Shown piece after piece: positions 17,028-40,000 of a stretch of 40,000 nt of DNA. A program made the translations under genes and the position numbers. The notes below the pieces were generated by a model. The model worked only from the letters and a program-made list of their open reading frames with translations. It made no database searches and was not told the DNA's origin. This DNA comes from Candidatus Peregrinibacteria bacterium CG10_big_fil_rev_8_21_14_0_10_55_24. GTDB lineage: Bacteria > Patescibacteriota > Gracilibacteria > Peribacterales > Peribacteraceae. Position 1 is the first letter of the stretch; each line of letters opens with the position of its first letter. Where the stretch lies: NCBI GenBank assembly GCA_002772745.1, contig PFDV01000005.1, positions 95,609 to 135,608 on the forward strand, in the 5' to 3' direction.

Positions 17028-17064
17028 CTTCTCAGGCGAGTGCTACTCGAAAGAAGTGTACTGA
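17028..17064 (+). pseudogene. orphan 3'-terminal fragment of an array paralog (..GECYSKEVY stop)
   Basis: ggcgagtgctactcgaaagaagtgtacTGA is near-identical to the last 30 nt of intact paralogs (gaggagtgctacctgaaagaagtgtacTGA). No gene body precedes it; the dnaX start codon lies only 20 nt upstream on the other strand. Confidence 0.7.
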
Positions 17065-17128
17065 GAATGAATGATGAATTATGAAGAATGAATAATGAAC
17101 ACATAATTCATCATTCACCATTCAAGCT
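17065..17128 (+). repeat. A-type heptamer-repeat hairpin (GAATGAT/GAATTAT units), copy A1
   Basis: Perfect 15-bp stem: GAATGATGAATTATG (17069-17083) pairs with CATAATTCATCATTC (17102-17116). It is followed by the conserved leader CATGGTTCATACTTTTCCC-ATG. Confidence 0.8.
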
Positions 17129-17148
17129 TCATGGTTCATACTTTTCCC

Positions 17149-18879
17149 ATGCAGCAGACCAGCCTTCACCAAGGTTCCGGCCGGCAAGCCTGTAGCCAAT
17201 GCCAAGCGGCGTTCGAGAATACCGAGGATGACTTCACGTTCTACGAGTCTCTTGGCGTGCCCCCTCCGCGTCTCTGTCCCGAGTGCCGCTTCGTGCGGCG
17301 TCTCAACGAGCGCAACGCACGAGTGCTCTACAAGCGGAACTGCGATCTCACCGGACGTGAGATCATCTCGCCGTACCACCGGAACCATCCGTTCCCCGTG
17401 TACGCGGCCGACGTCTGGTGGGGAGACGAGTGGGATGAGCTCAGTTACGGACGGGACTTCGATTTCTCCCGGCCGTTCTTCGAACAGTTTGCAGAACTCC
17501 TCTCCGTGGTTCCGCACCAGGCGACGTTCGTCATCACGGGTACATTGCAGAACAGCGACTACACGAACTGCACGGGATACTGCAAAAACTGCTACCTGAT
17601 TGCGGAGGCGGATCACAACGAGGACTGCTACTACGGCAATCGTCTGTTCTTCAATACGAGCATGGTGGACTGTTCCAACTGCTACGAGAGCGAGCTTTGC
17701 TACGAGACGATCAACTGCATCAAGTGCTTCAATGTGCGGTTCTCAGAGTACTGCCAAACGTGCAGCGACAGCGCATTCCTCAAGAACTGCATCGGCTGCA
17801 AGAACTGCATCGGCTGCATCAACCAGCGCCAGAAGCAGTACATGATCTTCAACGAGCAGCTCGCGCAGTCCGAATTTGAAAAGCGTCTTGGTGAGATGAA
17901 GCTCGATACACAGAGTGGCATCGTCCGCATGCGTGAGCAGGTAGATGCGTTCTTCCTCACCCAGCCGCAGCGTGTGCTCCAGAACGAGCACAACCAGAAT
18001 TCCACCGGCAACCATCTCTACGATTCCAAGAATTCCGCGGAGTGCTTCGACTGCAAGGATCTGGAGGACTGCAAGTGGTGTGCCAAGGTCTTCTCGGTGC
18101 GTTCTTCGCGCGATTACACCTCATGGGGGGATACGGCGGAACTCATGTACCAGTGCGCGGCGTGCGGGGATCACTCGTACGGGCTCAAGTTCTGTTCGAC
18201 GTGCACCACGAACAACGCCAATCTGGAGTACTGCGCGCACTCTACGGGAAGTAAGGACTGCTTTGGCTGCGTAGGGCTTCGGCACAAGCAGCACTGCATC
18301 TTCAACAAGCAGTACTCGGAAGAGGAGTACAAGGAACTCAAGGCAAGGATCATCGAGCACATGCGTTCAGCCACCCTTTGCTCCTCAGGAGCTACGGAGG
18401 GGCAGGCAGGCGAATACGGGGAGTACTTCCCCAAGGAACTTTGTCCCTATGCCTACAACGAGACCATTGCCATGGAGTACTTTCCTCTTACAAAGGAGGA
18501 AGCACTTGCCAAGGGGTATCGCTGGCAGGAGCCGATTGATGAGATGCCGGATGTAGAAAAAACTGTCCCGGCTGATCGTCTCCCCGAGACCATTGCCCAG
18601 GTGCCCGACGATATCCTCAACTGGGCGGTAACGTGTCAGGAGACCAAGAGACCCTATCGCATCATGAAACGCGAGCTCGAGTTCTACCGCCAGCAGAATC
18701 TCCCTATCCCACGGCTCCATCCGGACGTGCGCCACGATCGCCGGCAGAGCAGGCGTGCGGGTGCGCATCTTTTCTCTCGAACCTGCGCCAAGTGTGGCAA
18801 GGAGATGCAGACGTCGTTCGCTCCCGATTGGCCAGAGATTGTGTACTGTGAGGAGTGCTACCTGAAAGAAGTGTACTGA
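17149..18879 (+). CDS. Cys-rich multi-zinc-ribbon protein, array paralog P1 (function unknown)
   Basis: Collinear with the other array members. Start chosen at the second ATG (MQQTSLHQGSGRQACSQC) because the upstream ATG of the track ORF (17131) is ATA in the homologous leader at 39921. The N-proximal second ribbon is degenerate (CDLTG...VYAADVWW). The C-terminus is CAKCGKEMQTSFAPDWPEIVYCEECYLKEVY, followed by a double stop TGATGA. Confidence 0.9.
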   Translation: MQQTSLHQGSGRQACSQCQAAFENTEDDFTFYESLGVPPPRLCPECRFVRRLNERNARVLYKRNCDLTGREIISPYHRNHPFPVYAADVWWGDEWDELSYGRDFDFSRPFFEQFAELLSVVPHQATFVITGTLQNSDYTNCTGYCKNCYLIAEADHNEDCYYGNRLFFNTSMVDCSNCYESELCYETINCIKCFNVRFSEYCQTCSDSAFLKNCIGCKNCIGCINQRQKQYMIFNEQLAQSEFEKRLGEMKLDTQSGIVRMREQVDAFFLTQPQRVLQNEHNQNSTGNHLYDSKNSAECFDCKDLEDCKWCAKVFSVRSSRDYTSWGDTAELMYQCAACGDHSYGLKFCSTCTTNNANLEYCAHSTGSKDCFGCVGLRHKQHCIFNKQYSEEEYKELKARIIEHMRSATLCSSGATEGQAGEYGEYFPKELCPYAYNETIAMEYFPLTKEEALAKGYRWQEPIDEMPDVEKTVPADRLPETIAQVPDDILNWAVTCQETKRPYRIMKRELEFYRQQNLPIPRLHPDVRHDRRQSRRAGAHLFSRTCAKCGKEMQTSFAPDWPEIVYCEECYLKEVY

Positions 18880-39833: not shown

Positions 39834-39920
39834 GTATTGAGTATTCAGTACTGAGAATGAATCATGAATTATGAATCATGAATGATGAGCCCATAATTCA
39901 CTATTCACGATTCAAACTCC
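39834..39920 (+). repeat. composite B/A-type heptamer-repeat hairpin, copy A6
   Basis: Eight consecutive heptamers (TGAGTAT TGAGTAT TCAGTAC TGAGAAT GAATCAT GAATTAT GAATCAT GAATGAT) are followed by CATAATTCACTATTCACGATTCA. The leader CATAGTTCATACTTTTCCC-ATG follows. Confidence 0.75.
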
Positions 39921-39938
39921 ATAGTTCATACTTTTCCC

Positions 39939-40000
39939 ATGCAGCAAATCTGCGCAAATACGTGGTGTAAGCGGAGCTTCGAGATTGCCGATGAGGACTT
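39939..40000 (+). CDS. Cys-rich multi-zinc-ribbon protein, array paralog P11 (5' end only, continues off-window)
   Basis: The ATG at 39939 opens MQQICANTWCKRSFEIADED, nearly identical to the P7 N-terminus, behind the same leader. Confidence 0.8.
   Translation, partial: MQQICANTWCKRSFEIADED

Follow-up and report, generated by a model that had tools for sequence, protein, structure and literature searches.

The last 23 kb of the 40,000-nt stretch analysed here (the window; contig PFDV01000005.1 of Candidatus Peregrinibacteria bacterium CG10_big_fil_rev_8_21_14_0_10_55_24, which lives in groundwater and has a tiny genome) carry a tandem array of divergent, cysteine-rich paralogs of about 560 amino acids, in which two zinc-finger modules appear to enclose two solenoids with 12-residue turns, and which is interleaved with genes for TrmB-like regulators and for a P-loop ATPase with an N-terminal DUF8128 domain. 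We propose that the paralogs are ancient, separately maintained subfamilies that serve the ATPase as adaptors or clients. For this account as a whole, that is for anatomy, evolution, linkage and role together, our estimate of the probability is roughly 0.35; the anatomy and the evolution, taken alone, are put forward with considerable confidence.

Ten plus-strand open reading frames (ORFs), whose coordinates had been given in an earlier reading of this DNA from its letters alone (the sequence-only reading), were all recovered intact in the ORF list and by direct translation. They lie at 17149..18879 (copy 1, 576 aa, 39 Cys), 18953..20629 (copy 2, 558 aa, 39 Cys), 20729..22420 (copy 3, 563 aa, 44 Cys), 22427..24106 (copy 4, 559 aa, 35 Cys, with a divergent C-terminal tail ending in CYQTSFA), 24106..25770 (copy 5, 554 aa, 49 Cys), 25842..27524 (copy 6, 560 aa, 43 Cys), 27616..29286 (copy 7, 556 aa, 40 Cys), 30198..31868 (copy 8, 556 aa, 38 Cys), 33090..34778 (copy 9, 562 aa, 32 Cys) and 35781..37430 (copy 10, 549 aa, 40 Cys). 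Together they take up 16.8 kb, close to the earlier estimate of 17 of the last 23 kb, and the hand counts of 35 and 39 Cys made at that time are right for copy 4 and for copies 1 and 2, respectively. The ten proteins (549-576 aa, 32-49 Cys apiece) are collinear from the first to the last residue in a MAFFT alignment, with pairwise identities of 36-47%, and every shared motif listed earlier can be found in that alignment. The start of an eleventh copy at 39939 (39939..40000, plus strand, MQQICANTWCKRSFEIADED) is real, but the count of 11 that was based on it is an underestimate, as there are at least 13 intact copies: a contig from another assembly (L080), identical to the window across 14,220 nt with zero mismatches, completes copy 11 (562 aa, 38 Cys) and supplies copies 12 and 13, at window-equivalent positions 39939-41627, 41701-43422 and 43508-45193. 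A 14th copy starts at the end of L080; because the final ~105 nt of this contig match the junction between copies 6 and 7, that start may reflect no more than the edge of a repeat in the assembly graph.

More than 7,800 database clusters match a profile built from the ten copies, the best E-values being near 1e-259 and the window's own COU80_026xx proteins coming first, and thus the family is not a product of chance. One could still ask whether the array itself is an assembly artefact or a collection of decaying selfish duplications, since it includes relics of deleted copies, since segments of 80-130 nt are identical at some junctions and one assembly breaks there, and since the GC content varies among copies. 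All 13 copies, however, are intact and retain every family motif, the second assembly agrees over 14.2 kb without a mismatch, and pN/pS (the ratio of nonsynonymous to synonymous divergence) is below 1 in every region. Moreover, outside ~80-130 nt at some 5' junctions the copies are only ~50-60% identical in DNA, and the gene order copy 9, TrmB-like gene on the minus strand, copy 10, ATPase recurs elsewhere (L063, L021, L085 and Ca. P. riflensis), while the same order is seen in many metagenome-assembled genomes (MAGs) as well as in Ca. Peribacter riflensis, whose genome is closed. For these last two reasons an assembly artefact is unlikely, and we give the explanation as a whole almost no weight.

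Profile self-comparison divides the protein according to an A-B-B'-A' plan, in which residues 4-89 pair with 479-555 (probability 98.8%) and residues 110-247 with 259-397 (99.4%); by these alignments, the two terminal modules are homologous to each other, and likewise the two middle blocks. Each terminal module is a basic double zinc finger, composed of a treble-clef-like finger and a CxxC-x17-CxxC finger. Cysteine statistics and couplings were calculated for 471 family sequences aligned to the family hidden Markov model (HMM). The terminal Cys tetrads (5/8/42/45, 64/67/85/88 and 530/533/551/554) are gained and lost jointly (phi up to 1.0), with the second of them complete in just 40% of the sequences; the columns C530-x2-C533-x17-C551-x2-C554 are 98-100% Cys, co-occur, and are coupled in the direct-coupling analysis (DCA) described below. 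The first finger of each terminal module has a net charge of +4 to +5, each repeat one of −5 to −6, and the pI of the family is 5.3-6.2. The earlier statement that there is neither a transmembrane (TM) helix nor a catalytic motif was upheld: a hydropathy scan gave no TM segment in the family, and no hydrophobic N-terminal segment was seen, signal peptides not having been separately predicted. The proteins are predicted to be cytoplasmic.

Among known families, the terminal modules are most akin to TIGR04272 and PF23477, with which the C-terminal finger, the sole part to give database matches, shares the exact CxxC-x17-CxxC spacing, the tetrads co-occurring and co-evolving as described. The scores are borderline or sub-threshold: two of six copies reach the 27 bits of PF23477 (30.6 and 27.5; the rest 17.6-25.3), and with TIGR04272 one copy has no match and all scores are at most 27.2, below its cutoff of 36. 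Between the N-terminal finger and zf_Tbcl (PF13451) there is a likeness that we take as real yet below threshold, the best scores being 23.2 and 18.9 bits under a 24-bit cutoff, with no match in four of six copies. In contrast to all three of these families, which are small stand-alone or repeated domains, the fingers make up only ~30% of a 560-aa protein and most copies remain under the cutoffs; one finger per module is degenerate in many members.

The middle blocks are of a different nature. In a mean-field DCA, in which the top 40 couplings per region were considered, 27 of the 40 in repeat 1 are at a separation |i−j| of 12 (with 5 more at 11), and 19 of the 40 in repeat 2 (with 9 more at 11 or 13), as compared to 0-1 of 40 at separation 12 in each of three control regions. 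The controls recover the zinc-site pairs that are expected (8-45, 67-88, 533-551), which validates the method. The period-12 couplings extend over the whole block and involve chiefly non-Cys columns. Cysteines co-occur positively at separations of 3, 9 and 12 and negatively at 6 (phi down to −0.51), the latter being expected because residues six apart would face each other across the turn. An AlphaFold2 model of copy 5, based on 126 sequences (predicted local distance difference test, pLDDT, 82; predicted template modelling score, pTM, 0.85), likewise predicts beta-bridges at intervals of about 12 residues. In the turn itself, positions 0, 3, 6 and 9 form ladders of Cys, Ser and Leu, positions 1-2 are aromatic, positions 10-11 read [EK][ND], and positions 4-8 form a variable face with an entropy of 2.8-3.3 bits; thus one side of the turn is conserved, as C-[EK]-[ND]-C-[YF]-[YF]-C, and the opposite side is variable. 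Overall, these observations argue for a pair of homologous, acidic solenoids, each with about eight turns of 12 residues. The description of the family as a multi-zinc-ribbon protein therefore stands for the terminal modules, whose tetrads co-occur and co-evolve, but not for the two Cys-rich middle blocks.

What the many cysteines of these blocks do can be addressed from their distribution. In repeat 1 the central Cys columns fall on a single strict i+3 register, and in repeat 2 the CxxC spacing is kept with a shifted phase. The central columns are 20-95% occupied, the substitutes are Ser, Val, Leu and Ala, not His or Asp, and presence and absence are nearly uncorrelated (phi <0.3 for most). 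The total number of Cys is even in 48% of the proteins, as for random parity, and with no pairwise co-loss this led us to reject the hypothesis of disulfides. Occupancy, substitution, correlation and parity thus disfavour fixed zinc tetrads as well as fixed disulfides for this central part, and suggest instead that these cysteines are interchangeable core residues. The same numbers bear on the idea of a metal or redox buffer, that is a metallo-solenoid in which stacked core Cys would coordinate Zn, Fe, Cu or Cd in chains, or serve as a sink for redox equivalents, in the manner of an oversized metallothionein. A mean of 38 Cys per protein and the regular spacing just described would suit such a buffer; so would the best-conserved Cys of the blocks, a CxxC-x8-CxxC set (199/202/211/214) partly compensated by an alternative set six residues away, as would happen if a site were maintained, and the fact that the top PDB match of the repeat profile, a weak one, is to a CXXC zinc finger. 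Yet about 10% of the sequences have just 3 Cys at this best candidate site and none in the alternative set, the substitutes are not metal ligands of the His or Asp kind, and the correlations stay far from those of the terminal tetrads. Furthermore, the repeats are 12-14% Tyr+Phe, which is unlike metallothioneins, and bulk buffering would not need distinct orthologous subfamilies; we consider a buffer quite unlikely.

No known fold could be assigned to the solenoids. When the repeat profile was compared with the PDB at E≤10, only the CXXC finger of TET3 (E = 0.039, 50 residues), the beetle antifreeze protein TmAFP (E = 0.64) and a LIM domain of FHL1 were retrieved, none significantly. To our knowledge TmAFP (1EZG, PF02420) is the only solenoid that can be named with 12 residues per turn, with a core too narrow for side chains beyond Cys and Ser, and its coil is the closest known geometry to that of the middle blocks. 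TmAFP, however, is secreted, has i/i+6 disulfides and a TxT ice-binding face, whereas the present family is apparently cytoplasmic, has anti-correlated Cys at i/i+6 and no TxT face; it is also bacterial, and its solenoid is duplicated and flanked by zinc fingers. PF02420 gives no significant match to the family (Pfam E = 0.96 in one of 30 members; PDB E = 0.64). CXXC-type fingers such as those of TET3 and CFP1 have eight invariant Cys that bind two Zn, unlike the partially occupied and largely uncorrelated central columns seen here, and metallothioneins are small, with conserved Cys clusters and few aromatics, unlike a 560-aa protein with aromatic repeats and replaceable Cys. In their general organization, with a conserved solenoid core, one variable face, many paralogs and acidic rod-like domains, the proteins are reminiscent of the repertoires of leucine-rich repeat (LRR), ankyrin and pentapeptide-repeat proteins, from which they differ in the 12-residue unit with period-3 Cys and in the lack of any sequence or fold match.

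The family was sought in 1.84 billion cluster representatives by an exhaustive HMM search, in which 5,606 clusters passed a limit of E≤1e-3 and 2,419 one of E≤1e-30; the best 150 are nearly all full-length (540-600 aa). When clustered at 50% identity the family comprises at least 2,400 clusters, and when clustered at 90% it comprises more than 7,800. A scan in which a single genome stood for each GTDB species confirmed at least 593 stretches; 79 loci were kept, nearly all of them labelled Peregrinibacteria, Peribacteria, Abawacabacteria, Gracilibacteria, or unclassified Patescibacteria or bacterium. The family is confined to the four named groups. In the 79 loci the copies typically stand in same-strand tandem arrays, which reach up to ~9-11 copies per 20 kb. 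A full-length member in the bin 'Candidatus Micrarchaeota archaeon UBA10214' (L051, DUGF01000091.1) probably lies on a mis-binned Patescibacteria contig. In six other loci (L012, L040, L046, L059, L069, L072), labelled Gracilibacteria in four cases, Peribacteria in one and unclassified in one, the family ORFs are broken into many fragments under translation table 11, presumably because UGA is read as Gly (code 25) and in-frame TGA codons occur; with the wrong code, gene callers would overlook the family in these loci. An origin from phages was considered and rejected, as tblastn gave no match in 50,697 phage records and one partial match in 2.9 million viral contigs. The family has no match among the anti-phage defence models of PADLOC-DB v2.

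That the family is uncharacterised, as had been claimed, is borne out by these and the following searches, large as it is. With whole proteins and with the isolated repeat, Pfam, NCBIfam and PADLOC gave only borderline or sub-threshold zinc-finger matches, leaving the central ~350 aa unmatched; a profile search of the PDB gave only LIM-type matches to the C-terminal finger, and in a Foldseek search no solved or viral predicted structure resembled the full model. The full-length match to a characterised family whose existence the sequence-only reading had proposed to check was therefore not found in any of these collections. Deposited members are named 'hypothetical protein' or 'zinc-ribbon domain containing protein', and a literature search on the family, its Pfam names and DUF8128 returned no description of the family, its fold or the gene module. 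Two candidates from the literature were set aside: the Cys-rich proteins discussed in the main text of the 2016 paper on Peribacteria form another group, of 580-3,860 aa and mostly predicted to be exported (PMC4736985), and the hypervariable gene of a 2019 Gracilibacteria paper encodes an unrelated PTD-repeat protein. The only earlier notice of the family is a remark in a supplementary table of the 2016 paper (PMC4736985), which on one copy reads 'C-rich ... GATA-type (transcription factor??)'. From sequence and predicted structure, the protein architecture and the gene module would seem to be new, with no known family beyond the terminal fingers.

The 13 copies form a star-like pattern, any two of them being 36-48% identical. 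At synonymous sites divergence is saturated (pS ~0.8), and pN/pS is 0.39-0.72, below 1 in all regions, with its peak in the linker and second repeat; the column entropy, 1.0-2.2 bits at the ends, rises to 2.4-3.3 bits in the same two regions. Both measures uphold the earlier impression of conserved ends and divergent middles. For most copies the relatives in other genomes (55-90% identity) are closer than the mates in their own array, and gene order is conserved, for which reasons the paralogs are best understood as ancient subfamilies retained across genera, rather than recent duplicates. Recent conversion of whole genes was rejected given the saturated synonymous sites and the star-like 36-48% identity; only short 5' segments are homogenised. 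Copy 2 has probably had a different history. Its GC content is 41% (43% at third codon positions, GC3), and that of copy 4 is 45% (GC3 52%), against 51-57% (GC3 63-76%) in the neighbours and ~55% in the window. Copy 2 and its ortholog in a relative of 45% GC (L085, 3101-4777) share 90% identity at the protein level and 87% at the DNA level, while the other orthologs there are at 79-81%. Because of the low GC and of an ortholog identity above that of the neighbouring orthologs, we think that copy 2 was probably acquired laterally, by replacement of a single cassette.

Regulators and an ATPase had been described as interleaved with the copies, and indeed three TrmB-like genes and one P-loop ATPase gene interrupt the array. 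The TrmB-like winged-helix regulators are at 29283..30062 (minus strand, divergent from copy 8), 32168..32959 (plus strand; gene caller start 32228) and 34883..35644 (minus strand, divergent from copy 10, in a place between the orthologs of copies 9 and 10 that is kept elsewhere), with PF01978 scores of 48, 40.9 and 54.3 bits, respectively, against a cutoff of 25.6. Their C-terminal sensor domain could not be assigned and the NCBIfam equivalogs are far under cutoff; adiponectin matches of the third regulator in a PDB search are spurious and were disregarded. The ATPase gene (37596..39833, plus strand, co-directional with the array) encodes a soluble VirD4/TrwB/HerA-like protein of 745 aa, with its DUF8128 at the N-terminus. 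It scores 45 bits with PF02534 (T4SS-DNA_transf, cutoff 20.1; T4SS, type IV secretion system) and 30.3 with PF10412 (TrwB_AAD_bind, cutoff 20.5), and TrwB is its sole sequence match in the PDB. A hydropathy scan gave no TM-like segment, the NCBIfam conjugation models are all far under cutoff, and comparison of the ATPases with PADLOC yielded only weak P-loop matches to mad8 and HerA. Orthologs of the ATPase are 54-83% identical over the lineage. A 791-aa reading of the same gene (COU80_02705) begins at 37458, within an intergenic palindrome, and its first ~46 residues (..HSFTMHSASFILHHSFF..) are translated repeat (37458-37595); since the ORF read from there runs through the palindrome, this start is probably wrong and the start at 37596 used by the gene callers right; no record has the 791-aa form.

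To determine which genes accompany the family, 934 non-overlapping ORFs from 71 neighbourhoods were clustered without bias. Only two families recur, TrmB-like genes in 30 of the 71 loci and the DUF8128 ATPase in 21, every other family being present in at most 4. The ATPase mostly starts ~10-330 nt 3' of a family copy on the same strand, with few cases upstream or on the opposite strand, and the subfamily of copy 10 lies upstream of it elsewhere too, directly adjacent in L021 and with one copy between in L063. In the closed genome of Ca. Peribacter riflensis the same chromosomal neighbourhood holds a 7-copy array, TrmB-like genes and a 748-aa COG0433 ATPase (PMC4736985). The view that the array is a dedicated system rather than a random duplication thus finds support in the conserved neighbourhood, in the ancient orthologous subfamilies and in the recurrence of these two gene families alone. 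In sharing a P-loop translocase domain and in being encoded beside presumed partners, the ATPase is similar to VirD4/TraD/TrwB, HerA-NurA and HerA-Sir2. It differs from these systems in having no membrane anchor, no channel or relaxase genes nearby, and an uncharacterised N-terminal DUF8128, and in that its presumed partner is an array of 7-14 paralogs, not one gene.

The relationship of the ATPase to VirD4 raises the question whether the paralogs are cargo, that is effectors which the enzyme would hand to a secretion or cell-contact apparatus for delivery into a host or prey, with the invariant C-terminus (..RPEIVYCEECYLKEVY) as signal. The two Pfam matches and the TrwB match fit this idea, as do the tight same-strand linkage of family copy and ATPase and the strong conservation of the C-terminal tail; a diversified multigene repertoire with exchange of single copies between genomes resembles effector families, and relatives in the same class of bacteria are thought to be epibionts or predators. 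On the other hand, no T4SS channel or relaxase genes are recurrent across the 71 neighbourhoods and the ATPase lacks a TM anchor; the C-terminus is a folded zinc finger, modelled with confidence (pLDDT 88-96), rather than a disordered signal. Orthologs are retained and no region has pN/pS above 1, with the synonymous sites saturated, so that fast effector-like evolution is not apparent, and neither the N-terminus, which has no signal peptide-like hydrophobicity, nor the random Cys parity is what one would expect of a disulfide-stabilised exported protein. Delivery as cargo therefore appears rather unlikely.

A further alternative is that the proteins are free-standing binders of nucleic acids (transcription factors, nucleoid or RNA-binding proteins) that use their terminal fingers, the link to the ATPase being incidental or regulatory. 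The finger modules are basic, with Arg-rich helices (CRQQRRLAxRNER; HPDERHRRRMxLRNPRK), and match zf_Tbcl, zf_Tbcl_2 and the CxxC-x17-CxxC domain, which in small proteins of Methanosarcina binds zinc and for which a role in transcription has been proposed (PMC12704099); the Peribacter authors had 'GATA-type zinc finger, transcription factor??' in their table (PMC4736985), and the conserved intergenic hairpins could be autoregulatory targets. It must be considered, however, that the fingers are the least variable part of the protein and so cannot give 13 paralogs distinct sequence specificities, that ~60% of the protein is an acidic solenoid with no known role in nucleic-acid binding, and that sub-threshold matches to finger families are uninformative on the ligand. 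We regard this alternative as unlikely.

In our preferred, tentative reading the proteins would form a repertoire of adaptors or clients for the DUF8128 ATPase. Because conservation is highest in the fingers and variability highest on the face of the solenoid, we envisage common docking combined with paralog-specific recognition: a partner shared by all copies, nucleic acid or the ATPase ring, would be bound through the basic finger modules and their helices, each paralog would pick out its own target with the variable face of its solenoid, and the interleaved TrmB-like regulators, possibly together with the intergenic hairpins, would set which copies are made. A further reading, an intracellular recognition repertoire as a bacterial counterpart of LRR-type receptor families, based on a Cys-lined 12-residue solenoid not seen before that may be stabilised by metal, and in which each ancient paralog would read a different molecule of host, prey or invader and pass it to the ATPase, we consider improbable. 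Several points weigh against the adaptor reading and the account that contains it. The ATPase is found in only 21 of the 71 loci, a number that is a lower bound since many loci are truncated, and its linkage to the family may not be obligate. We know of no precedent for thirteen adaptors to one ATPase. The confidence of the AlphaFold2 model is only moderate in the solenoid regions (pLDDT 61-75), and homology between repeats can inflate period-12 couplings; such inflation is disfavoured because repeat 1 aligns without gaps and the non-Cys columns hold most of the signal.

The array also preserves traces of its own turnover. Three relics of deleted copies, absent from the sequence-only reading, are present on the plus strand of the window: the last 9 codons and stop of a lost copy (GECYSKEVY*, 17035..17064) beside the start of dnaX, the tail of another (...HPEEVY*, 31971..31991), and a mini-ORF of 45 aa (31998..32135), picked up as repeat family D5, in which a copy-1-like N-terminus (MQRTSLHQGSGRQAC) is joined to a C-terminal finger (..WPEIVYCEEC..) and which is an internally deleted copy. 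These relics show ongoing birth and death of array copies.

Six junctions carry an AT-rich imperfect palindrome of 85-100 nt, built of ATGAAT[G/T] heptamers, which spans the distance from a stop codon to the next start. The elements lie, all on the plus strand, at 17065..17148 (ending at the start codon of copy 1), 27525..27615 (from the stop of copy 6 to the start of copy 7), 31869..31969 (3' of copy 8), 34779..34850 (3' of copy 9, with a degenerate right arm), 37431..37522 (3' of copy 10) and 39848..39938 (ending at the start codon of copy 11), and a further one occurs in L080 at 19414-19505. All 14 matches of the pattern in the window fall within the array, with 0 expected by chance, and the folding z-scores are −2.7 to −3.9 for five of the six palindromes, that of the element after copy 9 being only −1.5. 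Rfam has no match anywhere in the array. Other genomes have different, array-specific intergenic hairpins (four in L048, two in L063), and a metagenome-wide scan with the 19-nt hairpin core, an AT-rich and generic pattern, gave no locus with the family among 80 fetched. The palindrome may serve as an operator, as an attenuator or as a site of RNA processing.

At the starts of copies 7, 11, 12 and 14 the upstream ~45 nt and the first ~36 nt of the gene (27570-27655, 39893-39975, and the starts of copies 12 and 14 in L080) are 97-100% identical, while the remainder of the genes is ~50% identical; copies 2, 3 and 6 share another upstream block (AATACTCTATACTAGCCCCT-GTG) and begin with GTG. The pattern suggests that the 5' junctions are locally homogenised or under strong selection. 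It is at a repeated junction segment that one assembly breaks. The best sigma-70-like hexamer pairs of the array are just upstream of the three TrmB-like genes, at 32132-32159, 35698-35669 (minus strand) and 30118-30089 (minus strand), with 11, 10 and 9 of 12 matches, respectively; the total of promoter-like sites in the array does not exceed the shuffled expectation.

On the 5' side, the array is preceded by gyrA, an hrcA-like gene, a paralogous ATPase, SHMT, 5-formyl-tetrahydrofolate cyclo-ligase and dnaX. The hrcA-like repressor gene (8058-8771) is followed directly by the second ATPase (8832-11510, 892 aa, DUF87/TrwB-like) and not by grpE or dnaK; the pair (8058..11510, plus strand) is kept near arrays in L010, L055 and Ca. 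Peribacter riflensis (genes 681-682).

Bacteria of the candidate phyla radiation have genomes of ~1.2 Mb and have discarded most biosynthesis. Against this background, the present lineage devotes ~2% of its genome to a single protein, in 7-14 or more divergent versions, and keeps the subfamilies across genera. What they encode is probably a new solenoid architecture, cytoplasmic, with a 12-residue turn, a period-3 Cys/Ser core and zinc-finger caps, set in a conserved three-part gene module of array, TrmB-like regulator and DUF8128 VirD4/HerA-like ATPase that is open to direct testing. The module offers a handle on biology specific to the Peregrinibacteria and Gracilibacteria, whose lifestyles have so far been inferred almost wholly from the absence of genes; if the reading as a recognition repertoire were true, it would represent a new kind of system behind their symbiotic or predatory lifestyle.

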